DNA of 59,971 bases, the filler included, from Squatina squatina (Eukaryota), in the NCBI GenBank assembly GCA_031763465.1. It is 3 parts of 3 records of this genome, joined end to end, with 100 filler letters (N's around TTAATTAATTAA, not from the genome) between each part and the next. Parts side by side here need not be neighbours in the genome. Positions count along the whole stretch, not along the records: positions 37,317 to 59,971 come from JARFOE010000001.1; 2 more parts are not named here. One strand, written 5' to 3'. How positions within the stretch are numbered: position 1 is the first letter of the stretch; every line of letters starts with the position of its first letter. The notes beneath the pieces are model-generated. The model saw only the letters and a list, made by a program, of their open reading frames with translations. It had not been told where the DNA came from and ran no database searches. Both the position numbers and the translations under genes were made by a program. Positions 7,551 through 51,804 of the stretch are shown piece by piece.

Positions 7551-8649
7551 AACCTTAATGGATTATTTTTAATTTAAACTGGANNNNNNNNNNNNNNNNN
7601 NNNNNNNNNNNNNNNNNNNNNNNNNNNNNNNNNNNNNNNNNNNNNNNNNNNNNNNNNNNNNNNNNNNNNNNNNNNNNNNNNNNGGTTAATTCCTAATTTT
7701 CAACACCTGCAATTGACAATCCTTTTAGTGGGTGAGGGTGAGTGGGGGGGAGGGGGAGAGGAGATGGAACCAAATGCATTTCCCAAAATTGTCCCATAAT
7801 CCACCCAAATTTCTTCAGGAAGTATGACTTCTTCAGCATTATCTGGTATTCCAATCAATTACAATTTGTGAGATCTTATGTGGATATTGCCGACTGCTTT
7901 TTCCTAAATAATCTCTCCACTTCAACGTGATTCACTGCATGTGAAACGGTTTGTGACATTCCAAGACATATGGTAAGGTGCCACATAAATACAGGTCTTT
8001 TGTTCTTGTTTGTTATTTTACAGTTGCCAGGCTCAAGCTGATTTGGATACTGAACTTGTTACACTTCAGCCCTGCTGGCACTTGCGTTCCTGCTGTTACC
8101 ATGTGATATTTTATTTCTAGGCTTCAATAGAGCTATTGTTTCGACTTGCCATCAATCATAGCAATTGAACCCCATTCCTGTGATAGGCATTTGTCACTAA
8201 TGGCTATTTTTGCAATCACCATGGACAGAACATCAGTTAGCTAAATTGAAATGCTGCGCTTGTAAAAGGTACAGTCATATTTATACTACTTGGATCAAAT
8301 GGCAGCAAACTAGCTCAAATTACTGGTATGCTTCCACCTAATATCGTTCTTTGTGTATTCAGTTCATATACAATTACAATAGTGGATGCATGCACTACTA
8401 ATCATCAAGGAATAATCACAATAGTATCTGTCAACATCATTGTTAGATACGGNNNNNNNNNNNNNNNNNNNNNNNNNNNNNNNNNNNNNNNNNNNNNNNN
8501 NNNNNNNNNNNNNNNNNNNNNNNNNNNNNNNNNNNNNNNNNNNNNNNNNNNNCATGTTTTCAGTTACTCATTGTTTCTCCTCTTTTATATAAAGCATCCT
8601 GATGCAGTGCAACTTAATGCTATAATTTTTTTTTTTGACCTCTGTGTAG

Positions 8650-9479
8650 GTAAAAGGACTGAATCATTGTCAACAGCTTCTAGATTACTATCAGCAAATG
8701 AGCAGAGTACATTAAAGCGCATTAAAAAACATGGGCTCTATAGGCCCAGAACTCCAGAGCAGATTTACTTGACAGTCAATGCTATCCATAATTCCCTCAG
8801 ATTTGATGAAACAAATATAAACACCCTCTACAACAATACACTTTCAGACGATTGGGGTCGGCTCCTATGTCCTCTTGAAGACAAAGGGAAAAGACTCGCT
8901 GTTGTAGCAAAAAAGAATCACAAAATCAGAATCAGCTTCATTAATGATGTTCAACCAACAGACGACTGTGTTGATGCCAAAACACTCATCACTCCTTTTG
9001 AGTTAAAAGAGCAAAACCTTAATCAGAAGTCTACATTTCGCAGTCTCAGCATGAAACGTTTTGTAAAAAAACCGATTAAACGATCAAAATCGACCTCAGA
9101 CTTTGTAGACCCTGTCCAGTTTAATCCTCAAAAGAATAGACCCCAAACTGCACTTGAAGATATAGCTAAAAAGACGGGCCACCTAACAACTGGTTCAAAA
9201 GAAAGCAGTCAAGCCAAAAGCTTTATGATTACAAGTTCGGCAATACCCTCAATAGGTGCGAAATTGAAGCCACACCAAACAGTAGACATGGACCCATATC
9301 GAAACAAAAGCAGCTTCAGTCTTAAGACAGCAAAACAACAAAGGGAGTATGCAGCCAAAGTAGTCATGGATCACAATTTTAACCAGCAAAGAAAACAACA
9401 GGAAAAGGACAGAGCTAGCCGGAAGGCCTGGTTAAAGAAGGCCGAAGTACCTGAACTTGGGCCTTATTTGTATCTTTGA
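8650..9479 (+). CDS. Terminal coding exon (~275 aa, basic, K/S/T-rich) of an unidentified gene
   Basis: Polypyrimidine tract plus TGTAG acceptor ending at 8649 (phase 1). Then 830 nt with no stop in AT-rich DNA, TGA at 9477-9479, AATAAA at 9542-9547 and a downstream GU-rich tract (~9582). No family recognised. Confidence 0.75.
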
Positions 9480-14680: not shown

Positions 14681-14780
14681 NNNNNNNNNNNNNNNNNNNN
14701 NNNNNNNNNNNNNNNNNNNNNNNNTTAATTAATTAANNNNNNNNNNNNNNNNNNNNNNNNNNNNNNNNNNNNNNNNNNNN
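14681..14780. other. Artificial scaffold-concatenation linker (N44-TTAATTAATTAA-N44)
   Basis: A 12-mer with stops in all six frames at 14725-14736, symmetrically flanked by 44 Ns. Identical structure at 37217-37316. Confidence 0.97.
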
Positions 14781-16053
14781 CCCTAACACAATAAACTAAA
14801 CTACACTGGTGATATTTGATTACAAGCACATATTAAACATTACTTTGAGCAGAAGTCAATCATAATATATTTTAACATTTTGGTATACAATTAATGCAAA
14901 TGAAATGCCTAACATAGTGAAGAATGTATCCACATGTAGTTTTCCAAAGAGGACTAAAAAAAGTAAACGTATGTTGTATAAAAATTAACTCCCCACCATC
15001 TTTAGAAAAAAAATGATGGTTTACCCTTCAGTGACATTTTATTTTGGTCTATTGCAGGGAATGTTATTAGAATTAATTACTTAATAAAAGGCACTAACCA
15101 CAAAACAGAAGAAAAAGCTGATTTTTGCTACTTGTGATATCGTTANNNNNNNNNNCGTGGTGGGCAGGAAGTTGTCGCACCTCCATAATATTACTGAACC
15201 GAACACGTGGTTTTTTTAAAGCTATAAATAAAAAAAGATAATTTTAAACAAAATCTTCAGACAAAAAGATGTGATATTATTGACAATTTGTTTTAGGCAC
15301 AGGTATTTGTTTCTTTAGTGCTATTTTGACTAATACTCCTCCCATTTATCATTCACTATCTGAGTGAATAATCACACAGGTTCACAGCTCAAACTGATAT
15401 TCTGTGATGAGTTAATTCCAGTAAATACTACCACATTTGGGAAGAGAGGAGAAGGAGAGAGAGGGGCAATGGAGAGGAAGAGGAGNNNNNNNNNNNNNNN
15501 NNNNNNNNNNNNNNNNNNNNNNNNNNNNNNNNNNNNNNNNNNNNNNNNNNNNNNNNNNNNNNNNNNNNNNNNNNNNNNNNNNNNNCCACAAAAAAAATAT
15601 TGCTATATATTTTCTTAACTTTTTCCATATTAAGAAGTGGAGGTAGAGTCTCTGCTTTGGGTGCAATCGGCAATCCGGGTGCAAATTGCGCTTGAAATTG
15701 CACTGGTTTTCCGAAGTGAAGTTCTACTTCAAATTTCTGCTCACTCATTTACATAATCACAAGCATAAAAATCTTCCATGAACCAGCGCAATCAGGCAGC
15801 ATAATAGAACATAATTGTTTTTTTTCCCCTTGCATTCACAATTATTCTCTGATGAAATTCACTGCAAAAGCTAGTTCATTTTCATCAGTTAGCTACCAGG
15901 GCTCAAAACTGAAGACCCAATGAACTGAAACAAGTGTGCTCATATGCTTGGGCTAACAAATTAAGAAACTTACCAAACTACCATTTGAATGAAAGCTATG
16001 ATATCTGAATTAACAGTTTACATACAAAATCACTTGCAACACTTAATACTCAC

Positions 16054-16116
16054 CAAGGAATCATTTACACTAGTGTCTGTAGTACAAGTTGCAAGATAAC
16101 TTTCAGCATCTGCAAA
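16054..16116 (-). CDS. SLC35F5: Solute carrier family 35 member F5, internal exon (63 bp)
   Basis: AG/GT-bounded exon encoding FADAESYLATCTTDTSVNDSL; recalled human SLC35F5 segment is [21 protein letters not shown]. In phase with the 16437-16571 exon. Confidence 0.92.
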
Positions 16117-16436
16117 CTTAAAAAGTTGAAAAAGTTAATAAGGAGGCAACAGGAAACAGCAAATCATATTGATAAAGTTGCCTTTGGTACATTTGCTGAA
16201 ATGAGCAGCAATTAATTACACATTCCTGTATAGGCATAGTTCTGATAGGACATTTACTGGAAGCCACAAATTATACAACCTTCTATTAAACTTAGACATG
16301 CACACCTGCACCAAATTATCTTTAGTAGCTGTACACTGAATATATATAATTTAATAATGTAACTAAATTGTCATTCAGAGTTCAGGTTATAAAGCTGATT
16401 ACATTTGATTTCCCCATACTTAGGACGACTACTTAC

Positions 16437-16571
16437 CAATGCAACATGTCTTCCATTGGTACACTGCTCCCGCCAAGGCTTCCAAACAAGGAATCCGATG
16501 AGGTAAAGCACAAACATAGATGTTTTGGCAAACGTACTAAAGAAGGGTTTCTCATACTTTTTAAATATATA
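16437..16571 (-). CDS. SLC35F5: Solute carrier family 35 member F5, internal exon (135 bp)
   Basis: CAG/GTAAGT-bounded exon encoding [45 protein letters not shown], matching SLC35F5 [25 protein letters not shown]35F5 is the known divergent neighbour of ACTR3. Confidence 0.95.
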
Positions 16572-18171: not shown

Positions 18172-18224
<53 letters not shown>

Positions 18225-20631: not shown

Positions 20632-20742
20632 TGGCCTATTCGTCATGGCATAGTTGAAGACTGGGATCTCATGGAGAGATTTATGGAACAAGTTATCTTT
20701 AAATACCTTAGAGCAGAACCAGAAGATCACTATTTCCTTTTG
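20632..20742 (+). CDS. ACTR3: Actin-related protein 3, internal exon (111 bp)
   Basis: CAG/GTAAGT-bounded; encodes [37 protein letters not shown], with ACTR3-type rather than ACTR3B-type residues as recalled. Confidence 0.97.
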
Positions 20743-21296
20743 GTAAGTAAAGTTGTGTCACTTGATGTGCAAATAGTAACTTTAAATGTAAAGCTTAATT
20801 AGTACTGTGTTAGAACTCTAGCATGGTTCAACTGAAAGGCTATCATTGTATGTTATGGTTGGCTATAGAGTAATAGGTGGAGGTCTGAGAGCATGTTCTG
20901 AGCCAAGGAGTTTGAAAAGTGATCCAAAAATTAATTTTATTTTTTAATCATTGGAATGTTTTTAATGGGGGAAGTGATTAAATTGGTTAGTAAATAGACT
21001 TAGTCGATGTATAATAACCTTGAATTGTGTTTCATATGTTAAAATGATAATACTGCAGATTTTCCATAGGTACTTGTGAAATTAGACATGGTCAAATTTG
21101 CTAATCTTGATAGTCTTCCAATGTAACTTTTATTGAGTTGTCATTGACCAGATATCACAGAAAACAACCTTCTCTCTTATAGTCCAAGCACTGAAGTAAA
21201 TTGTTGTAATGCTTTTTGAATAATACGCGCACAAAATGCATGAATACAATACTTCAGCTGCAGTTTGCTTAAAGGCTTGAATGATCTCTTCAACAG

Positions 21297-21382
21297 ACTG
21301 AACCACCATTAAATACTCCAGAAAACAGAGAATATACTGCTGAGATCATGTTTGAATCCTTCAATGTGCCAGGCCTTTACAT
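21297..21382 (+). CDS. ACTR3: Actin-related protein 3, internal exon (3' end lost in gap)
   Basis: CAG acceptor; encodes [28 protein letters not shown]; Ns begin at 21383. Confidence 0.97.
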
Positions 21383-21529
21383 NNNNNNNNNNNNNNNNNN
21401 NNNNNNNNNNNNNNNNNNNNNNNNNNNNNNNNNNNNNNNNNNNNNNNNNNNNNNNNNNNNNNNNNNNNNNNNNNNNNNNNNNAGTAAAATTATAATAAAC
21501 AATTTAACATCACTGTCGGAGCGCTGTCA

Positions 21530-21665
21530 GGACTGCTGATGAAAGGTCATTGACCTGAGATGTTAACTTTTTCTCTCTCCGCAGATGCTGCCTGACTTGC
21601 TGGGTGTTTCCAGCATTTTCTGTTTTTACCTCAGATTTCCAGCATCCGCAATACTTTGCTATTGT
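21530..21665 (+). mobile_element. Penelope-like pLTR-derived repeat with degenerate hammerhead core
   Basis: CTGATGA-A-AGGTC-ATT-GACCT-GAGA-TGTTAAC followed by GATGCTGCCTGACTTGCTG..TTTCCAGCA. Related copies at ~51810-51935 (-) and 52391-52520. Confidence 0.6.
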
Positions 21666-22403
21666 TTTCGAATTTCTTTTGCCCCACATCCTGGGCTGCA
21701 ATCACTCACTTAAACTGACTCTAAAGCTGCTGGCAGGTATTAAGAACATGTGATGACTTAAGACTTGAGACGTAGGTCCTGTTATTGCTGTCACTAGTAC
21801 CTTGGCAGCATTCGCTTCCCATGTCCTATGGAGAGGAAGAGGGGACAGAGACGTGTTACATCTCTGCCCCATTTCCATTCCCCAGAATATCTGGGCTTCC
21901 CCAAATAGGGGAAGCTACAATAAGAGGCCCAGAGCAACCTTGGTAATTTGACAGGAGGCGTGGTTCCAATCTTCCCTGCGCAGTTTCCTGTTTCTTAGAA
22001 TAGTGCCCGGGACGTTGATGTTTGGCTTTGCACCTGGGACCGCACTCCCCCACCCCAATCCCCCACATTGTCCGTCAGATCAAAGGTTCTGATTGGGTCA
22101 GGCAGCAAAGTGAAGAAGGTCAAGAAGGTTCTTCGGAAACTTAATCGGAAGAGATTCTATTGCATTTTTTGGACCTGATGGCTGTATCTGTGTCTGATTC
22201 TTGGTGCAAAACCCGACCAAGTAGTAATATGTGCCAGGGATATAATGGTTAAATCAATAATGTTTACATGTAAATCTTGAAGATAATCATCAAAAAATAG
22301 TTTGTGGTAGATTTTGTGAGGATTGACTAACTGTAGTTCTAAATGTGTACCTATTTTTACTTACACATGTTTTATTTCTGCTTAATGTTTTATTGATCTA
22401 AAG

Positions 22404-22577
22404 GAACGCTTCAGTTATGTCTGCCCAGACTTGGTAAAAGAATTCAGCAAATATGATACAGATGGTGCTAAATGGATCAAACAGTATACTGGAGTCAATG
22501 CCATCTCCAAGAAAGAATTCACCATCGATGTAGGCTACGAGCGATTTTTGGGCCCTGAAATTTTCTTCCACCCAGAG
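22404..22577 (+). CDS. ACTR3: Actin-related protein 3, internal exon (174 bp)
   Basis: AAG/GTAACT-bounded; encodes [58 protein letters not shown]. Confidence 0.97.
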
Positions 22578-23214
22578 GTAACTTTGTTTTTGTTGTACTT
22601 AGTGCATTTTTATTGCAAGACTTCAACATTTGGCTCCTGACAGCAGAGGGCAGGATGCAGGTTTGTAACGAGGTTGGATTTATCCTCGGATTAATTTGGA
22701 GGCAGCAGAATGTGACCGTCCTGACATAAACACCAATATATTGATTGCTTGCGGCAGCCAACCCTTGAGGTAAGATCAGTCTATTTTATGATGGGAGCTG
22801 GCTGTAAATATCCACGTGTTGACTCCATTTAAGTGACAACACTTCACCTGTGACTGGATTGCCAGACTGTTCCTTTAATCATTAACAAAATAAAAAGCAA
22901 ATTAAAACATCAACTGTGCCAAACAATATAACCAAAGAGATAGCAAGATTAGAAATGCTGCTTTTAAAATTTCCATTTTCTTCCCTGCACTCCTGATGGC
23001 TCTTAACTCTTGCTGAGTTCCATTGACACTTGCCACCCTTCAATGCATCTTCACGTGAAAGCCTGGACAGTCCTGGTCAGCAGTCTATTCAACTGTAAGC
23101 ACATCACAACTGAGCCCGAACTGGTCCTCATGCACATGTTGCCATAGAAGTCACTGGCCACATTCCTCCTATACCGTTGCCTACCTGCAAATGTAGCAAG
23201 TTTTGTGAACAGCT

Positions 23215-23900
23215 CAGACATTCTCAGTGGTCATGAGACTATTTGTGGATAGCACATGGCCTTGAGATTGCCACTTTGATTGAGGATGCAGAGTATTACA
23301 GCCCTGTCCTGCTTGTTGTTGAGCTTTGAGTGTTGGAGCTGCACCCATCCAAGCAAGCGGAGAGTATTCCATCACACTCATGTAAGCCTTGCAGGTGCTG
23401 GAGAGGTTTTGAGGGGCAGGAGGTGAGTCACTCACCTCAGAATACCCAGCCTCTGTCCTGCTCTTGTAACCATGGTGTTCACATCTAGTTAGTGCGGCAC
23501 TTGGTAATGCTACGGAAGGTGATTGGCACTTTTATTGTTGGAGATAGTTTTTACGTGGTATTCATGTAAAGTAAATGACAAGTCTCTGCTTGGATATTAT
23601 CCAGGTCTTGCTGCAGGCTGGCACAAGTTGCTTCATTATCAGAGGACTTGTGAATAGAGCTGAACACTAGAAAATTGTAAGAGAACAGCCAGACCCCCTG
23701 CCCTTACGGTGGAGGGAAGGTCATTGATGAAGCAGCTGAAGATGGTTGGACTGAGGACACTGCCCTGAGGAATTCCTGCAGCAATGTCCTACAGTTGAAA
23801 CAATTGGCCTCCAACAAGTACGACCATCTTTATTTGTGGCAGGTAGGACTCTAGCTACTGAAGGATTCTTGCCTTAACGCCCAATAACCTCCGTTTTACT
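23215..23900 (-). mobile_element. Degenerate non-LTR retrotransposon ORF2 remnant
   Basis: Minus strand reads PQNLSSTCKAYMSVMEYSPLAWMGAAPT (LINE thumb region). A GIPQGSVLSPTIFSCFINDL RT motif lies near 23720-23780. Confidence 0.75.
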
Positions 23901-24416
23901 TGCTGCCATACTTTATTGAATGTACAAAATGGCAGCTAAAGTTTCAGTAATGAACGAGCCCTAACAGACGACAGTTGGGACGTTGTGCTGGAGCGCGTGA
24001 TTTCAACCTGTAATAAATTAAAGGTTAATTTGAAATTGATCTCAGGACATACCACACCTCTACTTGTGCAGATGGAACCCAGAATCAAGGGAGGATGTTG
24101 CAAAAACTGATGCGGAGACACAATCCTCCATGTTTTCTTCTCACATCCAAACATCCCGCCTCATGCCGAAACTGCCATGTGCCAACCATAAAATCACAAA
24201 GTACCCCAGACTTGGGAAACAACTTCCTGGATCTCCCCAAAGTGACCCCACTGGATCTGCACGTGGTGACAGGACGAACCTCCCCACAACCTGGTCAATG
24301 TGGATTAAAGCACAATGCAAGATCACCCAAAAAAAACAGGCGTTCCTGAGGTTGAATAAAGAGAAAATATTTTCCTTGACTTGGACCATTACCAGTGGCT
24401 GGCCAGTATATCAAAC

Positions 24417-24571
24417 ATAGAACCATAGAAAATAGGTGCAGGAGTAGGCCGTTTGGCCCTTCGAGCCTGCACCACCATTCAGTATGATCATGGCTGACCA
24501 TCCAACTCAGTACCCTGTACCTGCTTTCTCTCCATACCCCCTGATCCCTTTAACCACAAGGGCCACATCCA
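24417..24571 (-). mobile_element. CR1 LINE 3' end
   Basis: CATAGAAACCATAGAAAATAGGTGCAGGAGTAGGCCGTTTGGCCCTTCGAGCCTG is the reverse complement of a CR1 3' UTR and microsatellite tail. Confidence 0.8.
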
Positions 24572-25787
24572 NNNNNNNNNNNNNNNNNNNNNNNNNNNNN
24601 NNNNNNNNNNNNNNNNNNNNNNNNNNNNNNNNNNNNNNNNNNNNNNNNNNNNNNNNNNNNNNNNNNNNNNNGAATTGTGTCCATTATCCCAGCTGCGCAT
24701 TGCTTTTCGAAATAGTGGTAATCTTGATTATTGGGTAGAAAATAGCTTGAGATAATTGAATGGGACTAATATCACCGCTACGTTTTATTAAAGGACAATT
24801 GTTTCATGAGGTGAGCCATGGCCAGGAATGAGTCAAAACTCCCCCCTTTTGGAAGTCCGACTTGTGGTTGAAGGGTACATGCTTGGGGAAATGAGTTGCT
24901 CCTGACAAAAGCTTTCTGTGCATTTATGACAGAACCAGTCCGAGTAAATACATATTTCAATTCAGGAAACGAAGTTGTGGCAGATTTATAAACGAGAACA
25001 GGTGATCTTTAGAATCAGTGAGAATGATAGAAACAACATTGGCTGAAAAGAGGGAGTAGAACATGTTCCACACATACTGTAACTGTTCTGAACATGCATT
25101 TTGTGAAACAAAAAAGTAAAATTAAGAATTGTATTTTTTTTAACCTTCATCAGGTGTCGCATACTAGTATTACTGTTTTATGTCTGACACAATTATAATT
25201 TTCTGTATCAGACCACAATTTTTTAAAGAAATGTCAGCCTTTATTTTAAACATCTCTTCCCTCATATTTTGGTAACGTGGCTTCTCTGTTCTCCACAGTT
25301 TCCACTTTCTAACATTGCAAATCAATGATCATTCTCCTTGTTTCTTTCATCCTTTTAAAGTGATGTTTCAGATCTCAATCAGCCTTAGTGGCTTTTGTTC
25401 TGTTCAGATCTCAGATTTTTTCAGATTATGTAATTTCATTGCATTTAAATGCTCCAAAGATTTATCAGGATTTAAACAACAATATTCACAATCCTTTCTA
25501 TTTCTGTGCTTTCTGAATTTTCCATCCTGCTTTCATTATTTTGTAGGAGCTACTTCAAAATTACAGTATACTAATTTTTGAAATGTTCTCTAACTTTCTT
25601 CACCGTGTCCAGGAAAAAAAAAATATCTCCACCAGAGAGGTAGTGCAGAAATGCTCAGTAGTAAAATTGAAAGCTTGGAGTTCCCCTTTAACATCTTGCT
25701 ATGAACTATATGAATCATCTGGATAAAAATTCACAATGTGCAAAGCTTTGGACAGTTTAAGGTGGAAGAAATGATTTTGTCTTTCAG

Positions 25788-25913
25788 AACGTTGTCCTCT
25801 CTGGTGGCTCAACCATGTTTAGAGATTTTGGACGTCGTTTACAACGAGACTTGAAGAGGACAGTAGATGCCAGGCTTAAACTCAGTGAAGAATTGAGTGG
25901 TGGAAAACTAAAG
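25788..25913 (+). CDS. ACTR3: Actin-related protein 3, internal exon (126 bp)
   Basis: TTTCAG/GT-bounded; encodes [42 protein letters not shown]. Confidence 0.97.
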
Positions 25914-27379: not shown

Positions 27380-29056
27380 GAGGTCTGATCTGCACTTTGA
27401 AGCTCTGATCTATCAGATCAGTCTGGCTGCCACTTACGCTGTCTTAGATTAGACCTCAGATGAGGACCAATGTGATCAGCAATCGCACCAGCAGCTGCTC
27501 ACAGACCTGTAGCTCCACAAGAGAGAGGTTAGCAGCAGAGTGGTGTAGCTCGCAGGAGACCTTACTGTATGATAGTGTCTAACACACCCATGGGCATATC
27601 CTTGTGCTACAACAAATCTCTACTCTTCCTTTTCCAAGAGCTTCGACGTGGTGCAACCCCTGTGGCTTCAGCAGAGGTAAAGGCAGGTTGCTCAGATCCC
27701 TGCTCTGACTGCTGAATTGCTCTAGGCCAAAGTCCTCTGGGTTTTTGTGCCTGTGAGGGCCCCGATTCTGCCCCTGTGCCTGTGCAGGGGTAGACTCGGC
27801 CATCAGGACACAAGGCAGTATTACGGGTGCTGACCGAGGAGGAGGGGTGGGTGCAGTGGGTGAGAAGTGGAAGCACTTTGAGCGGAGTCCCCACTTCCAT
27901 GTCCCCTTTAGCCATCATCCCTCTCATGGCCCAGCTAGCAACGAGCTGAAGAACACTTTGCTGCAGATCACTCTATTTAAAGTGGCATCCAGAGTATGCA
28001 AGTCATTGGTGAAGGCCTGATTGCACTGGTTCGATTTCCCTGTTTGATGCTCCATGCAGCTGCCCATCTATCCATGGACGAAGGCATCATCGCAATAACC
28101 TGTGACAGCATCCCACTCATGCTTGAAGCGGAGTCCTCCAATCGCTCTGCAAGCTCGCATAGTGTGGCTGGAACGCCTGTCAGTACATTGTACATTTTTT
28201 GCTGCTGCACAATAAGTATCCTCTTCATGGGCGGCCCCCAGGATACAGCATCTGCATCCAGCTCAGCAGAGCTTGGATAGTGCTGTGCCCTCCGATGCAG
28301 ACTCTCCACTGTTGTCCCTGACTCCACCATCTCCTCTTGCTCATTTGTGAAGTGTGAGTTACCCTGTAAATACCCAACTATCTCTCTAACTATTGCCACC
28401 AAACTGCGAGTATCTGAGCTGGTATAGTCCGCATGTGTCCTGTGACAGTGGACCCTCAAAGGAAGTGAGCTCCTCTGAGGAGTCAACATCGTGGGTGACC
28501 TTGACCACCTGCTGATAGATGTGTGAAGGCCCTGTGGGAGATAAAAGACATGAATGAGTACTGTCAAGATAAGAATGTTTGATGTTATCATTATGCACAT
28601 GATCATATTTTACTCACTGTTGACATCAAGTCAACATGACTGAGCATTGTATGCCATGTGGCTGTTTGATATTTAATTCTGTCAGCAGGTAGCTGGCAGG
28701 CCCTCATCTCCGACAGCCANNNNNNNNNNNNNNNNNNNNNNNNNNNNNNNNNNNNNNNNNNNNNNNNNNNNNNNNNNNNNNNNNNNNNNNNNNNNNNNNN
28801 NNNNNNNNNNNNNNNNNNNAGTGGGTGTGTAACGCTCACTGGATGCCCGATCTCCAACATTGGTTTTAGCCACTTATCTTAACGACAGCGCAGAATAACA
28901 ACAGGGAGAGCTGTCGTCCACCAAACAGGAAGCAGGTCGCAGCAGCGATATTTAAAGGCACCATTCCCAAGCAATTTCCCGGGAGGCAGTAGTGCCCCCT
29001 CCCCCTGGTGAAACCCCCCCAGAACAGGGCTATACAAAGGGGCACTTTCACCCCCC
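27380..29056 (-). mobile_element. Degenerate Harbinger-like DNA transposon remnant (spans a gap)
   Basis: GC-elevated block with a frameshifted minus-strand ORF ending in a heptad-like segment (LCELAERLEDSASSMSGML). The terminus at 29036-29054 (reverse complement GGGGTGAAAGTGCCCCTTT) matches 31515-31533 at 18/19 positions. Family call is inference. Confidence 0.45.
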
Positions 29057-37216: not shown

Positions 37217-37316
37217 NNNNNNNNNNNNNNNNNNNNNNNNNNNNNNNNNNNNNNNNNNNNTTAATTAATTAANNNNNNNNNNNNNNNNNNNNNNNNNNNN
37301 NNNNNNNNNNNNNNNN
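37217..37316. other. Artificial scaffold-concatenation linker (N44-TTAATTAATTAA-N44)
   Basis: Six-frame-stop 12-mer at 37261-37272 between two 44-N runs. Confidence 0.97.
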
Positions 37317-41220: not shown

Positions 41221-42446
41221 TTTCAGTCCCTCAAGTGAGAACTGTTGGAGGCATAAGATAGTCCAGTCGCTAATAATTATCAAACAGAGTTTGCAGTTTG
41301 TTTCCCTGGTATGTGTCCAAAAGCTTACCTAGATCTCANNNNNNNNNNNNNNNNNNNNNNNNNNNNNNNNNNNNNNNNNNNNNNNNNNNNNNNNNNNNNN
41401 NNNNNNNNNNNNNNNNNNNNNNNNNNNNNNNNNNNNNNTGGTTATTCATTAGGCTCAAGGGAAGTGTTTGGCTTCTATGTCTGGACAGGAAAGGGTAAAT
41501 CAGAGCAGAAACCTCATTATTTTTGAAGACTGTCCCATAACTCTCCCACTTAAGCTACACATGGGAATATTGCTCAGCCAGTGGGCACTAATTGGTTGCT
41601 CACAAGTGGTTTGAAAAAAACAACACTGGAGTCTCAGCACACACTTGATAATTATTGTCCACTATTTAACAGTAATCAGCAGAACTAATTGCTTCTGCAG
41701 ACCAACAGACACAATTTAAATCACAGTTTTGACAGTTTTATTCTTGCGACAGCGTCCATTAGGAATTACACAGCAACTCCTACTTGTGTTCCAGCACTCA
41801 TAAAATGGGAACATCCAACACCCACAGATACAATTAGCTTTGTGATTTGTTTCCTGCATAGGCTACAGCTGTACCATCATGTTCATGCTGGTGTGAAGTG
41901 CTTTCAGGTGCACACTGACGCAAAAGTATCAGCTCCCAATCTTATACTCGAACACAGTAAAGCTATAGACAGCATATATCATAGATTCATCAGGATGGGA
42001 AACTATAGTTACAGTGAAGAGGCTTATACCATTTCCACTGGAGCTAAGATAGTTAACAAGATTTTTAAAATTATATGGGATTNNNNNNNNNNNNNNNNNN
42101 NNNNNNNNNNNNNNNNNNNNNNNNNNNNNNNNNNNNNNNNNNNNNNNNNNNNNNNNNNNNNNNNNNNNNNNNNNNNNNNNNNAGTTTTTATCTTATAATA
42201 CTCCTGTGAAACACCTTGGGATGTTTTACTACGTTAAAGGTGTTATATAAATACAAGTTGTTGTTGACCTCCCTCCCACTGCCATCCGGTCCCATCTGAC
42301 TTTCTCATCATCACAGAGGCATTTTGATCAAGATTCATGGAACTGTCCAAGGGGAGCCTAAGTGCAGACACCAGTCAAATTGGGATTTCAGTGTCATAAT
42401 GTCGTAAGTATTGGTCCTGGCAGCATAGAGTGGAGTTCAAACCCAC

Positions 42447-42696
42447 CTGTTATTTCCTGAAGTAGTTGAGATAAGTTAGGTTCATCACACAAGGCCTGCA
42501 GCAAGGCTTTCTTGACCTCACGTTCAGCTTTATCCACCACATTGTCTAACTTGAGCTCTCCAACCACAGAGTAGATGTAAACCAATAGAACAAGAATTTC
42601 TTCAGGATTGTAATCAAAGTAGTCTCTCTCCCCATGGGACTTGATCAAAGGCAGAAATTGGGTTAAAACTCGAGATAAATCATGATCCCCGAGTGT
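42447..42696 (-). CDS. SCFD2: Sec1 family domain-containing 2, internal exon (250 bp)
   Basis: TTTAG/GTGGGT-bounded; encodes TLGDHDLSRVLTQFLPLIK..DYNPEEILVLLVYIYSVVGEL..AEREVKKAL..LSQLLQEIT. In phase with the 44015-44190 exon. Confidence 0.93.
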
Positions 42697-44014
42697 CTAA
42701 AAAACAAAAAGAGATATTTTCAATTTTAGTGCAAAAATGTAGTCACTAAATTTCAGTATTTTTCAAGTTAGAACAAATTTCCTTTTTCATAACATTCCCA
42801 CATTACTTCAAACTGCTCACACACACTTCAAATTTTAAACCAATGCCACTCAATATTAACAGCAATAAATATCTAGAAAACAGCTGTTAAGAAAATCAAA
42901 TACACATTTCAGATCAACTACAATGGAAAGACAGCAGCGCTATTTTGTAAAATGGACAAGGTTCTATAAGTTACAGATAAGGAGTTTGATTTTTTTCAAT
43001 AGCCAGTACATTTTTCAAGTGACTGCACAATAGCTGTTAATGACAACAGTTACTAAATAAATATTAAATGCTGTACTAATATTCTAAGATAAGTGAATAT
43101 TGAATGCAGAGTTGCAATACTGTATAATTTACTGGCATCATGCCAGTAGGGCAGAATCAGATCAGAGTGTCAAAAATGTACCTATTTCNNNNNNNNNNNN
43201 NNNNNNNNNNNNNNNNNNNNNNNNNNNNNNNNNNNNNNNNNNNNNNNNNNNNNNNNNNNNNNNNNNNNNNNNNNNNNNNNNNNNNNNNTAGTGTGAATTC
43301 CTTGAACACCTTCTCTGTGAAAGTTTGAAAGCAATAACTGACACTGATCTCAGCATAAATATTGATACTCTCATAGCAATTTAGCAACTAAGGGGTCCTT
43401 TGTGCAAAATTCAAATGGAAAACAAAGAACATTACACTACTTTTAAAACTGGAAGAAGCTAAGCACACATATTAAATTATGTCAGAGTGCAGAACAGAAT
43501 TTATGGGCCTCACAGTGTTAAAAATGTGAGCTCTTTCTGTTTGTGTTACACTGACTAGCAGATTGCTCATCAGGGGAAATTCAGCTTTTCTACTCCTGTG
43601 GTTTACTCATTTTATTTCATTATTTAGATGCATGTTTTGAGGTTTGGGATTTATATCGTTTTAGACCATTTTGACCCTCGGGAGTCTGTCAGGAATCTTA
43701 TTCAAGATAAAATGCCAGCCAGAAACCTAAAACACATTTAATCAGACTGGAAGGAAAAAAAAAGGTAAAAAAACTCATGACTCCATAATGAACTTCACAT
43801 TTCTCCTGGGACTTGACTCCTGACACAAGGAGTGGGCCAAATAAGAACCAGAGAGCGTGGGCCCCGACATCAGCCTGGTTTTAATTAGGCCATGCAAAGG
43901 AGCTCNNNNNNNNNNNNNNNNNNNNNNNNNNNNNNNNNNNNNNNNNNNNNNNNNNNNNNNNNNNNNNNNNNNNNNNNNNNNNNNNNNNNNNNNNNNNNNN
44001 NNNNNATACCAAAC

Positions 44015-44190
44015 CTGCAACAGCAGCCTTTCAAAAGCAAGGAAGTTATCCCATTTTGAGTAGCACTTGTGTCCCAAAGTCTGCACTGTTGCCATAGTAA
44101 GTAGCAAGAGCCCACAGTGATTCTCCAAAGCTTTCAAATTGCTCTTAAATAACTGGACATACGAGTTGAGCTGTTCAGGTGTGACTCTAC
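44015..44190 (-). CDS. SCFD2: Sec1 family domain-containing 2, internal exon (176 bp)
   Basis: CTACAG/GTTTGG-bounded; encodes RVTPEQLNSYVQLFKSNLKALENHCGLL..KWDNFLAFERLLLQ. Confidence 0.95.
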
Positions 44191-47098
44191 CTGTAGAAAG
44201 AAAAGGATGTAGGAAAGCTATTACAGGTACATTTAGAATCAAGAAAATACAGATCATCTTTACTAAGTAGGCCTCCTTTGAGCTGATGGTTTAAAAAAAA
44301 ACAGGTTTATTGAAAAGAAAAGTGTTGTGAACGTCCTATGATGTGCAATACGTAACCTCAAAAGTTAGCGTACCATTTGCGCAACCTTGATACCAAAATT
44401 AATTATGGAAAGTTTTATTGGTAATATTTTTTATTCGAAGAAAACAAAAAAAGGAACATATTTCAATTTCAGAGAATTTATAATTAAAACTAAATTTGAA
44501 CAATGGTTTCTTATGATGTGGCAAGTTAAAAAAAAAATACACAGACTATGAAGAGCTTTAGCATGTCCTGAGGATGTGAATTGTCTTGTAAGCAACTAGG
44601 GTAGTCATTTTATGCATAGCAAAATGCCACATGGAATAATAAGATAAATGGCTAGTTAATCTAAAAATTTTTTTGATTGAAGGATGATCGTTGGCCAGGG
44701 CACTAGGAGAATTCCCTCTCTGTTCGCATCTGTTCTGACGACGCCACCTTCCACACCAGTGCTTCCGACATGTCTTTCTNNNNNNNNNNNNNNNNNNNNN
44801 NNNNNNNNNNNNNNNNNNNNNNNNNNNNNNNNNNNNNNNNNNNNNNNNNNNNNNNNNNNNNNNNNNNNNNNNNNNNNNNAGTAAAGCACACACATGATCA
44901 AAAAACACTCACAATCTGCTTTTCGTCTTATGATTTTACCAACAGACGCACAAAAAGGTTAATGTACGCATGCATACACCGTGGGATAGGAGTATTGAGA
45001 TCACATGCTCAGTGACTGTGTCTATTACTCATCTTTTTATCCGAAACAAAAATGTAAACAGCCACATCTGAATTCCCAATTAGCTACATGTGGCTAGTGA
45101 CAAACTTATTTAGCAACACTGTTGTGGGACAAAAAATTCAGAATTCAAGAGATTAAATTTCCAGATAACCACCAAGTATTTTTTGTCCATAAATCCATCA
45201 AAATACTGCTCTCCCCCACCATATCCCAGTGCCAATAGAAAAGTCAAGGCCAGAGGGCACTGCTGGACTACAGGGGAAATTTCAACCGTGCAACTGCGTG
45301 GCTTTCAACTGTAAAAGCAGAGGTGGTAGAGAGAATAAAAGATTTAAAACACCACATTTCTGTAATTAATTCTAATGAGGCCCTAGAAGTGTAAAAAACA
45401 TAGGATGGAGCTTGGATATGTGGACTGGTGCCTGGAGAATCAATTATTGAGACTTGTGTGTTATCAGCAATAAATCTTCCCTTTAACCAGCACTCGGCGA
45501 GCTGGAGGATCTGGAAAAGCTATTTCACAGAAAACACTGGCCTGCATGCAGCAGTTATCTAGTTTGCTGCAGCTCAAAAGGAAACTTAGCTCAGGACACA
45601 GGCTTTGGTCTTGGCCATATTCAAAGCAGCTTATGGTAGATGAAGACTTTCAGACCTAAATTATGGCAGCAATTCAAGACAATATGCATACTTAAAAAAG
45701 GGCAAAAGTTTATTGAAATGACTAAGATCACATCTAGGCAAACTCTACAGGAAACCAGCTGTGAAAATAACTGTTGCCTTACTCAGTGGATCAGTCACCA
45801 ACATCAAAGGGTCATATTTGACATTCACTACATCGGAGATCATTTCTGCTTTAAAGAAAGTAATTAAAAATTTTAAAATTGTATTTTTTTCTTGCTATTG
45901 GACCGGATTTCACAGTAAGAGTAACGGTGAGGCTATCAGCATTCACCATTATTAAGGAGCAAATCAGACAGCAACTTCCGGCGACCGCCCATGCATGGTT
46001 TAACACGGAAATCAAGAAGTTGCTGTCCAATTTGCCCTGCTTCTCCACAAGCTTCACTACACTAGTATCTCGTCGAGAGGCTCGGCATTCAAACACATGA
46101 ATGGCATAAAGATATTGTACATATCAACTATATACCCACTAAACACGCCAAAAAAAATTGGGGCTTGACCATTCAAGTGTAAGTTAATTTTTAATGGTAC
46201 AATAAGTCTTACTTATTACCAAACAGCCTCACTGGCACTGAAAATGAACTTTTACAAGTGTGGAGTCTCAATCCTTCAGATTTTAATTATTGTCGGAGAT
46301 TTTTTTTTTTAAATTGCTTTTACTTTTTCTTTCTACCTTTTATCTCTCTCTCTCAATCCCATCTTTATTTCGTTTTCTGTACATGACTTTACACTGAATA
46401 TTCTAATTTACACTTCCTGGTTTCAACTCAGTGTGTCTCAGTAGGGATTCATCAATCTGATTGGTTGAAGAGACAAACTGTTGCTTTCCCTGCTCACACA
46501 NNNNNNNNNNNNNNNNNNNNNNNNNNNNNNNNNNNNNNNNNNNNNNNNNNNNNNNNNNNNNNNNNNNNNNNNNNNNNNNNNNNNNNNNNNNNNNNNNNNN
46601 NNNNNNNNNNNNNNNNNNNNNNNNNNNNNNNNNNNNNNNNNNNNNNNNNNNNNNNNNNNNNNNNNNNNNNNNNNNNNNNNNNNNNNNNNNNNNNNNNNNN
46701 NNNNNNNNNNNNNNNNNNNNNNNNNNNNNNNNNNNNNNNNNNNNNNNNNNNNNNNNNNNNNNNNNNNNNNNNNNNNNNNNNNNNNNNNNNNNNNNNNNNN
46801 NNNNNNNNNNNNNNNNNNNNNNNNNNNNNNNNNNNNNNNNNNNNNNNNNNNNNNNNNNNNNNNNNNNNNNNNNNNNNNNNNNNNNNNNNNNNNNNNNNNN
46901 NNNNNNNNNNNNNNNNNNNNNNNNNNNNNNNNNNNNNNNNNNNNNNNNNNNNNNNNNNNNNNNNNNNNNNNNNNNNNNNNNNNNNNNNNNNNNNNNNNNN
47001 NNNNNNNNNNNNNNNNNNNNNNNNNNNNNNNNNNNNNNNNNNNNNNNNNNNNNNNNNNNNNNNNNNNNNNNNNNNNNNNNNNNNNNNNNNNNNNNNNN

Positions 47099-49634: not shown

Positions 49635-51505
49635 NNNNNNNNNNNNNNNNNNNNNNNNNNNNNNNNNNNNNNNNNNNNNNNNNNNNNNNNNNNNNNNNNN
49701 NNNNNNNNNNNNNNNNNNNNNNNNNNNNNNNNNNAAGTTACAAAAACCTAGCATTAAACACATATCTTTTCATTCATTATTGCTATTTGATTATGACTAT
49801 TTCTTTAGTGAAGTGTCTTTAAAATTGCAATATGTATTGAGGTCAGATCGGTAATCCAATAACTGCTGACTTTTCTAGAGAATAGATTCTCTTGTTTTTC
49901 CCCACGAGAGATATCTACATAGAACTACTGCATGTGTATCTCTTGTGACTACATAGTTATGCAGAGGATTTTCTCCATGTGCATTACGGCATATCTGTTA
50001 AAAATGCAGGCAATTCTGTCAATAATTGTAGAATTATTGGGTGGATCATGACTGAAATTGGTTTCCTTGGCAGCTATAATGCAGAAAATGATAGATTCTG
50101 GAACTGAGTAAAATGTATCTCTGATCACGATACCTGAAATTTTCAGATTTGGCTAATGTTGGCAAGGCAGCATCTATTGCCCATCCCTAGTTTCCCTGAG
50201 AAGGTGGTTGTAGGCCTTCTTCTTGAACTACTGCAGTCCGCGTGGTCTAATGGTTTGATACAGCCGAGTGATTTGCTAGGCTACTTACACATTGGTGTGG
50301 AACTGGAGTCACACATTGATCAGACTGAGTAATGACGACAGGTTTCCTTCCCTAAAGGACGTGAGCGAACCAGTTAGGTTTTTTGGACAATCTGACAGCT
50401 TCGTGGCCACTTTTACTGATAGCAGATTTAAACAAAAACAAATTTAAATTCTCAAGCTGCTATTAATTTCAAAATTTTTAAGGAAGTAAGTTATTTTAAT
50501 AAATTTTAAAATGTATTGTTATAGGTATTCTGGTATGGAGAATGTCATCTGAGCTTCACTGATGACTAAGTGGGTAAATGCTCCTTGTCATGCAGTACCA
50601 AGCCAAACAGACCAAGAAGGGCCCACATTTGATCCATTGCCTGGTACTGGACCAGGCTAGTGGAAAAAAAAATCAACCAGTCTTTCTGCACTCAACAGCT
50701 ACCAGTGATTCATGATAGGAAGTGTGCACGTGTGTATGTTCAGGTGAAGCCTGGCTGTGATGCTGTATGCGGTTGAATATTCTGCGGACAATCACTGTCC
50801 AAGCTCGCACATGAACAATGCCACTTGTGTGAAGAGTCCAAGGGCTGCTAGTACCATGAAACAGTGACCCAGTATGAAGCATTGGCCTTCAAGCAATGAG
50901 GGAAAAATTGAAGAAGAAGAAAAAAAGAGTTGAACATGTTGCCTCAAATTGATCATATGTAATAGCACAACAATTTTGGTGCATTCGGTTAATTTTGACA
51001 GTTTCTATCTTAAATTTATGTGATGTTATTTCAATAATGTGTGTTGAATCANNNNNNNNNNTTAGTGCTCCCAGTGCGGAGCTTCGAGTGAGGGACGTGC
51101 ATATCACGAATTTGGTTGAGGAGGTTAGCATGTTCGATTCACAGCCTGCAGAATTTTCCATCCATAAATTTTATACTCTGTGCCAGGTGTGCTGAATCAT
51201 ATAATTTACCATACTAGACATGATATATTCATGAAGTATATAGGTTCTTTAATAAAAATGAATGTGCCGCAAGAGTGGGCTAATAATGCCTGCGGGGAAT
51301 GCAATTGTGTTGCAAAACACCCCAGGATTTTAGAGGTTAAGAGAGCTTTTGCGAGAGGTAAGTAGGTACTGGTTTTCAATTATTAATTTAAGAGGTATTT
51401 ATGTCTGCAAGTTTCAGTACCTTGTCTAAAGGAACCTGTCTCAGGGCCACATGAATGTGATGTTTGTTCTATTGGCTAACAGTTTTCTTTTTCTGTCTGA
51501 TTCAG

Positions 51506-51634
51506 GGAACCATGTGTTGTCTCCTGGCAGCAGTGTGGGAAATGGCTTGACATCAGTTGCTGCTGAAGCGCTGGGACTACCTAAGGGAATTGCTGTGGCA
51601 GCATCTCTGATCGACGCCCATGCAGGAGGTTTAG
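51506..51634 (+). CDS. FGGY: Isolated exon (129 bp) of FGGY carbohydrate kinase domain-containing protein (D-ribulokinase family), antisense within SCFD2 intron 1
   Basis: Branch-like CTAAC, pyrimidine tract and TTCAG acceptor; TTAG/GTACTC donor; phase 1-1. Encodes [44 protein letters not shown] versus recalled human [44 protein letters not shown]. Whether it is functional here is unknown. Confidence 0.88.
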
Positions 51635-51804
51635 GTACTCTGGGGAAAAGAGGATGGGAGCACAACAGTGAATTATTTCAATAATGTTTTAGATAAATTT
51701 CTTTTTCTTTGGTCATCGTTCATGAAACTTAGAGAAATTCCTTTCCAGATTACTTTTTTTTGTTCTTTTTTAAATTATATGACACAATTTAATGTCACTA
51801 CGAA

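Follow-up and report, generated by a model that had tools for sequence, protein, structure and literature searches.

The stretch of Squatina squatina DNA analysed here (59,971 nucleotides, hereafter the window) consists of three independent scaffolds placed end to end, so adjacency across the two artificial linkers (14681-14780 and 37217-37316, each composed of 44 N, a 12-base word of TTAA repeats and 44 N) is meaningless. The third scaffold carries parts of SCFD2 on the minus strand and of FIP1L1 on the plus strand, and a single coding exon of the carbohydrate kinase gene FGGY lies in the contig (51062-54019) that also holds SCFD2 exon 1. The principal features are listed in Table 1. Within the window the assembly comprises 45 contigs with an N50 of 1340 bp, contig 51062-54019 being the second longest, and has 35 unsized gaps of 100 N.

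Table 1. Features at and around the FGGY exon, in window positions.
Feature	Positions	Strand	Remarks
Remaining SCFD2 exons	42445-44200	-	tblastn: residues 372-433 at 44200-44015; residues 434-517 at 42696-42445
Scaffold gap of 100 N, unsized	49635-49734		Placement of the FGGY block between SCFD2 exons depends on it
Body-like fragment of interspersed repeat	50288-50463	+	Same family as 52540-52603; lies at the left of the FGGY block (depth 3e4-2e5 across bins 50164-50449)
FGGY intron-exon-intron block	50348-52379	+	Minimum bounds; collinear with individual contigs from related sharks
10-N gap	51052-51061		Inside the FGGY block; one record on both sides in 4/4 runs
Acceptor region of the FGGY exon	51476-51505	+	CTAAC branch-point-like motif 51476-51480, pyrimidine tract, AG 51504-51505
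FGGY carbohydrate kinase internal coding exon	51506-51634	+	129 bp, phase 1-1, intact
Degenerate copy of a high-copy repeat	51805-51935		In the FGGY intron common to relatives; family alignment
Inverted repeat pair, hairpin	52377-52542		Degenerate left arm; fuller right arm 52430-52542; very high-copy
Junction interval	52380-52708		329 bp; separates the FGGY block from the SCFD2 block; inferred misjoin site
Tail-like fragment of interspersed repeat	52540-52603	+	Ends approximate; family joined to 50463 in X6 records
SCFD2 block	52709-53958	-	Start of intron 1, exon 1 (coding 53607-52782), upstream region

The FGGY exon reads as 2+126+1 bases, that is, 42 whole, stop-free codons between split codons, and corresponds, split codons aside, to residues 217-258 in shark and ray FGGY; a donor GT follows at 51635-51636. 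The initial annotation had described a 129-bp phase 1-1 exon with a branch point, a pyrimidine tract, AG and GT sites and no disabling change, and all of these elements were confirmed from the sequence. Its assignment of the peptide to FGGY was likewise borne out: the best match in a peptide search had an E value of 7e-14, 180 of 259 candidates passed, and among the 120 matches listed each named row was an FGGY kinase or carried FGGY Pfam domains. The peptide is 86-93% identical to shark and ray FGGY and matches residues 227-262 of PDB 3gg4 (E 1.5e-4), while the 42-residue exon matched 0 families in Pfam and a DNA pattern of acceptor plus exon gave 0 matches in metagenome contigs. In a comparison that covered 54 homologues from chondrichthyans (13 distinct exon peptides) and 108 from elsewhere (39 distinct exon peptides), none of them dropped, the exon retained 19 of the 19 columns that are invariant across the 52 distinct homologous exons. 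All but one of its 42 residues occur in another chondrichthyan, the exception being Ser9, which is the commonest residue at that site in other vertebrates, and Glu20 is common only to Pristiophorus among the 13 distinct chondrichthyan exons. Genomic read-through frames (P0002 and P0009-P0012) share the boundaries of the exon, and the upstream intron at 51372-51491 is homologous to the intron beside the skate-type FGGY exon in P0002. Judged by this conservation, the exon looks functional. In a rough simulation, the probability of finding at most one amino-acid change was 0.79, 0.49, 0.28, 0.14 and 0.07 at 1, 2, 3, 4 and 5% neutral change per site, respectively. The introns of the block diverge from those of relatives by 6-13%, from which we infer about 3-6% per branch, and since the exon is intact despite this divergence, it would be either a working copy or a young duplicate.

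A tblastn search with 11 full-length FGGY proteins recovered the exon at E values of 1e-15 to 1e-19 and no further FGGY exon in the 60-kb window, the next best match having an E value of 0.12, in agreement with the earlier remark that the exon has no companion there. Human FGGY is a D-ribulose kinase according to PMC13576159. As in vertebrate FGGY (structural relative PDB 3gg4/3l0q), the matching exon is present here with conserved boundaries; vertebrate FGGY, however, is a whole enzyme, whereas one exon alone is unable to make it.

The neighbouring SCFD2 exon 1 is 95% identical to the Pristiophorus japonicus protein, which makes a squalomorph host likely, and matched 0 Pfam families. In the third scaffold, SCFD2 is represented by residues 1-279, 372-433 and 434-517 only, and residues 280-371 and 518-680 had no tblastn match in the window. 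The end of the FGGY exon and the last base of SCFD2 exon 1 are 1148 bp apart without any N, in keeping with the roughly 1.15 kb, uninterrupted by N, that had been given for the distance to the exon 1 donor. The further claim that the exon sits inside SCFD2 intron 1 could be upheld for its right-hand side, whereas on the left the block runs toward the unsized 100-N gap, the SCFD2 exons for residues 280-371 are missing, and no return from the block to the SCFD2 intron was seen. An intronic position therefore rests on the right-hand join and on that gap. FIP1L1 exons were recognised in one contig only: two consecutive plus-strand exons within 54600-55090, one of them near 54600-54710, which include a Fip1 motif and of which the second was read by eye. 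Contigs that are separated by 100 N and carry exons in gene order suggest that the contigs were ordered by homology.

Among 21 sequencing runs listed, the largest share of this stretch's words in any one run was 13%, and no RNA run was among them, which has no bearing on expression. To place the exon in its surroundings, contigs of four of these runs (X1, X6, X7 and X12), from the related sharks A, B, C and E, were aligned to 49735-54019 at 80% likeness, and missing coverage on its own was given no weight. The pieces considered were the 32 longest of 185,594, reaching down to 111-114 nt, and the method drops some conserved records. In shark B, a single contig (X6 record 17) covers 50348-50884, 51062-52137 and 52203-52379, and X1 record 3, X7 records 23-24 and X12 record 10 also support the block. 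Collinearity extends to both sides of the exon in all four runs, so the exon sits within FGGY's own introns. The block measures at least 2.0 kb, its left end lying somewhere beyond 50348, and the 10-N gap inside it is a correct join. The exon, previously called an orphan, is the only FGGY exon in the window and is at the same time surrounded by FGGY-orthologous intron DNA, which spans at least 2.0 kb and crosses the 10-N gap. The initial annotation had offered two repeats as places where a chimeric contig might have been joined. The repeat at 51805-51935 is refuted as such a place, because one record each from A (X1 record 3), B (X6 record 17) and C (X7 record 24, from 51807 onwards) continues across it. 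The other, at 52391-52540, lies within 52380-52708, the only interval left unbridged in the listed pieces. On the far side of that interval, the SCFD2 block is covered by single records in X1, X6 and X7 and by two overlapping records in X12.

None of the 32 longest listed pieces (of 185,594) crosses 52380-52708 in any of the four runs, although such contigs break at repeats, and the two blocks lie on separate records in all four relatives' runs among the pieces listed. Because the listing reaches down to 111-114 nt, it would be expected to include a shared piece of about 170 nt consisting of the hairpin's right arm and the repeat tail. We regard the relatives' lack of a listed crossing piece as strong but not conclusive evidence. 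FGGY-side records run past 52379 by 322 letters in B and 325 in C, and SCFD2-side records run on for 114, 118, 162 and 389 letters past 52709-52764, with no piece listed at either place; taken together, the run-ons in B (322+114) and C (325+118) would suit neighbours separated by 406-413 bp, close to the 329 bp of the window.

The junction interval is mostly repeat: besides the hairpin and some 105 other bases it contains a repeat tail (approximately 52540-52603), and the summed depth within it reaches 2.8e6 in relatives. The arms of the hairpin are 84% complementary with 20 nt exact, its fold has a z score of -9.6 (0 of 200 shuffles equally stable), and the summed depth of the hairpin repeat in relatives is 8e4-2.8e6. 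An origin as a fold-back read artefact is unlikely, since the arms differ by several indels and have only 20 exact bases in common. The high-copy shark repeat to which it belongs has three copies in the window (21530-21665, 51805-51935 and 52377-52542). By alignment, two copies show CTGATGA before a short stem, a hammerhead-like arrangement, and the loose ends of relatives before 52430 supply the same motif. A minimal hammerhead ribozyme core serves as a criterion for Penelope-like terminal repeats (PMC6155905). An Rfam search of 49735-54019 gave three matches, all far below threshold and none to a hammerhead, and a strict search for the hammerhead core gave one occurrence, which is chance level; by motif, "Penelope-like" is a plausible but putative label for the hairpin repeat.

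A second repeat family occurs on both sides of the FGGY block. Its fragments at 50288-50463 and 52540-52603, which we take to be SINE-like, are body-like and tail-like pieces of one family that flank the block in the same orientation and nearly in register, an arrangement that a misjoin leaves unexplained. X6 record 17 begins at 50348, so the repeat body is already joined to FGGY intron in shark B, and in other X6 records 50463 is followed, 26 letters later, by 52548, and 50420, 37 letters later, by 52558.

FGGY and SCFD2 lie on separate chromosomes elsewhere, as judged from record lengths and relatives' contigs rather than from a reference alignment. The lengths of the records (chromosomes) bearing FGGY and SCFD2 differ in 10 of the 10 elasmobranchs with both genes listed, none of them a squalomorph: Narcine (257.7 and 375.7 Mb, FGGY first here and below), Mobula hypostoma (118.1 and 232.5 Mb), Rhinoraja (61.0 and 143.7 Mb), Stegostoma (104.1 and 194.1 Mb), Leucoraja (61.9 and 170.1 Mb), Amblyraja (70.1 and 193.2 Mb), Mustelus (140.6 and 202.1 Mb), Cetorhinus (105.8 and 250.2 Mb), Carcharodon (123.5 and 274.1 Mb) and Scyliorhinus canicula (244.3 and 277.3 Mb). 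The statement that the two genes are unlinked, made previously for human, holds in these species. High chromosome-level synteny between the Greenland shark, a squalomorph, and the white shark, a galeomorph, is reported in bioRxiv 2024.09.09.611499. Judged by titles, a literature search combining FGGY with SCFD2 found no work on their linkage.

Taken with these results, contig 51062-54019 is rather probably a chimera of an ordinary FGGY stretch and the start of SCFD2, misjoined somewhere within 52380-52708. The exon and its FGGY introns are real and the neighbour is probably false; the misjoin itself, as an assembly artefact, is what we infer from the following. It is favoured because the relatives carry the two blocks on separate records, with none of the 32 listed pieces crossing, and because FGGY and SCFD2 are on different chromosomes in 10 of 10 elasmobranchs, with high synteny reported between a squalomorph and a galeomorph shark. 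It is favoured further because the exon looks functional, the simulated probability of at most one change being 0.28-0.07 at 3-5% neutral decay, because the junction interval is mostly high-copy repeat, and because the assembly is weak (N50 of 1340 bp, a gap in an SLC35F5 exon and a run of 52 C). Finally, no second breakpoint into the SCFD2 intron was seen and no repeat of at least 10 bases is shared by the two sides: 52380-52780 and 49735-50450 have none of that length in common, and the two shared nine-mers compare with 1.7 expected. Under this reading, two short contigs, one of FGGY intron and one of the SCFD2 start, each ending at or in a high-copy repeat, would have been bridged within the junction interval, either by a chimeric library molecule or because a thin short-read assembly followed a wrong path across the repeat. 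The merged piece would then have been ordered among the SCFD2 and FIP1L1 contigs by its SCFD2 exon, and the exon at 51506-51634 would be a working FGGY exon, with nothing nested in the animal. Several observations speak against a misjoin, and an event private to this lineage would not show in relatives. The FGGY match stops at the edge of the hairpin without long homology on which an assembler could slip; body-like and tail-like pieces of one repeat family flank the block nearly in register, as a real insertion would leave them; the run-ons in B and C would be compatible with a spacing of 406-413 bp; and in X6 the extra depth over the exon amounts to a second record (implied depth 20), with some extra depth also in X1 (7).

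Were the join real, the most plausible alternative, which we still consider unlikely, would be a recent duplication private to the lineage, in which SCFD2 intron 1 received a copy of an FGGY intron-exon-intron segment of at least 2 kb, through break repair at the hairpin or through a retroelement copying unspliced RNA; the exon would then be silent, because it faces away from SCFD2 transcription. The contiguity of the blocks without an N gap and the coincidence of the join with a strong hairpin agree with this, as does the absence from relatives, which is expected and is seen among the listed pieces, and a young duplicate could well be intact still, given probabilities of 0.79-0.49 for at most one change at 1-2% decay. 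Precedents for the route are the retroposed gene copies reported in the Greenland shark (bioRxiv 2024.09.09.611499) and Penelope elements able to move intron-containing genes (PMC3846280). Set against this, no left breakpoint into the SCFD2 intron and no target-site repeat of at least 10 bases were found, poly-A is absent at the right end of the block, and the exon does not lie between two direct element copies. In de Bruijn assembly, moreover, a near-identical 2-kb duplicate usually breaks a short-read contig at its end, whereas the contig here reads through.

The RNA route deserves a closer comparison. The earlier argument that retained introns rule out a retrocopy holds for a spliced one: a processed retrocopy can be rejected, as there are intron flanks on both sides and no poly-A tail. 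It does not extend to unspliced RNA, as the rotifer Adineta vaga illustrates, in which Penelope-like elements mobilised an intron-containing gene according to PMC3846280. The two cases are similar in that intron-containing host DNA lies near direct and inverted repeats with a hammerhead-like motif. In Adineta, however, two direct terminal repeats enclose the gene, an 8-bp target-site duplication is present and the empty site is known, whereas here both same-orientation copies (51805-51935 and 52377-52542) are to the right of the exon, one of them being FGGY intron in relatives, no duplication or empty site was seen, and self-BLAST found no repeat copy to the left of the exon (49735-51505). A capture with the Adineta layout was therefore discarded, as the cargo is not between two direct terminal repeats. 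That the join is real and arose when a Penelope-like element copied unspliced FGGY RNA into the SINE-like repeat, splitting it, with the hairpin at one end, appears improbable, and among the papers listed by a literature search there was no shark case of intron-retaining exon transposition by a retroelement.

An older insertion common to squalomorphs is about as doubtful as that route, if slightly less so. Here the block (50464-52539) would have split a SINE-like repeat in SCFD2 intron 1 into the body (50288-50463) and tail (52540-52603), and relatives would carry the block too, their contigs breaking at the repeats. The X6 joins from 50463 to 52548 with 26 letters between show one family nearly in register, the 406-413 bp implied by the run-ons in B and C is about what a fuller hairpin would yield, and X6 has extra depth over the exon. 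Since the repeat body and FGGY intron are already joined in B, such an insertion would have to be older than the divergence from B, which is hard to square with an intact exon and with the lack of the right-hand piece. Yet within 52380-52708 no listed piece exceeds 114 nt in the four runs, compared with about 170 for right arm plus tail, and in X7 (1.6 on 19.7) and X12 (0.8 on 5.9) the exon has little additional depth, so no second, parental copy of the exon is visible in these two runs, although the method may have filtered out conserved records there. Decay would also be expected in an old silent copy, whereas the exon is intact. Tail-only repeat fragments are common.

The remaining explanations fare worse. 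A true translocation or interleaving, in which a working FGGY runs through or breaks at SCFD2 intron 1, is very improbable: although the exon looks functional and shares an unbroken contig with SCFD2 exon 1, there is no second FGGY exon in 60 kb, and the remainder of FGGY could continue only across SCFD2 exon 1 and into FIP1L1, which is on the same strand. Both genes would be severed by a fixed translocation; the SCFD2 exons present are nonetheless 90-95% identical to the sawshark protein, and the closest annotated relative has an FGGY with both Pfam domains and a 680-residue SCFD2. Nested antisense intronic genes and retroelement 3' transduction are known classes. The former likewise place coding sequence on the opposite strand in another gene's intron; in contrast to both, the present case has no complete gene, no poly-A tail and no second breakpoint. 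A nested gene was set aside, as the window holds a single exon only. Contamination, with the FGGY block stemming from another shark sample, is hardly credible. A thin assembly would admit stray reads and nothing more direct favours it, whereas the two blocks are about equally distant from the four relatives (7.2-7.8% for the FGGY exon and flanks, 4-9% for the SCFD2 side) and both point to squalomorphs (Glu20 with Pristiophorus; SCFD2 95% with Pristiophorus). Among the three options originally entertained, a duplication or capture, a rearrangement or nesting, and a chimeric contig, the last is thus best supported and true nesting is nearly excluded.

The favoured chimera corresponds to an interchromosomal chimeric contig as defined for RaGOO (PMC6816165), as its two parts match genes on different chromosomes with one switch point. 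RaGOO considers 10-kb alignments, and contig 51062-54019 is far smaller, so such a correction would miss it. If the misjoin is true, it is a caution that short contigs free of N can still fuse unlinked genes, and that homology-ordered scaffolds then give the passenger a nested appearance. If instead the join is real, it would represent a duplication on the scale of an exon, introns kept, in a shark genome that evolves slowly; and if retroelement hallmarks came with it, intron retention would be no bar to an RNA route in vertebrates carrying Penelope-like elements. Copying by a Penelope-like element in particular, improbable as it is, would be the counterpart in a vertebrate of what was described in a rotifer, the transposition of an exon by a retroelement with introns retained.

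Several further features were observed in the other scaffolds of the window. A partial SLC35F5 (15099-16571, minus strand, residues 44-197) stands head to head with ACTR3-type exons (20632-25884, plus strand), of which 22413-22577 matches Arp3 and 20632-20742 and 25788-25884 were recognised by eye. In 7 of 7 species SLC35F5 (and ACTR3) and SCFD2 are on separate chromosomes; the presence of these genes beside SCFD2 was dropped as a sign of bad scaffolding, as artificial linkers separate the scaffolds. A 10-N gap (15146-15155), which costs an SLC35F5 coding exon its residues 156-182 (about 27 codons), is likely a coverage drop-out, and the run of 52 C at 18172-18223, which opens a contig, is likely a read artefact retained in the assembly. 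At 8553-9476 (plus strand), an open stretch of 308 codons has no Pfam match, and its last 291 codons have no usable ESM Atlas match; it is possibly a large exon of some gene. The segment 36616-36891 (plus strand) has a weak Myb/SANT-like match (E 0.002, below the cut-off) and 27980-28609 (minus strand) has no Pfam match; both are presumably remains of Harbinger-type transposons. The contig at 10511-11219 consists entirely of degenerate 3-, 6- and 15-base repeats, and five frames are open over most of its length.
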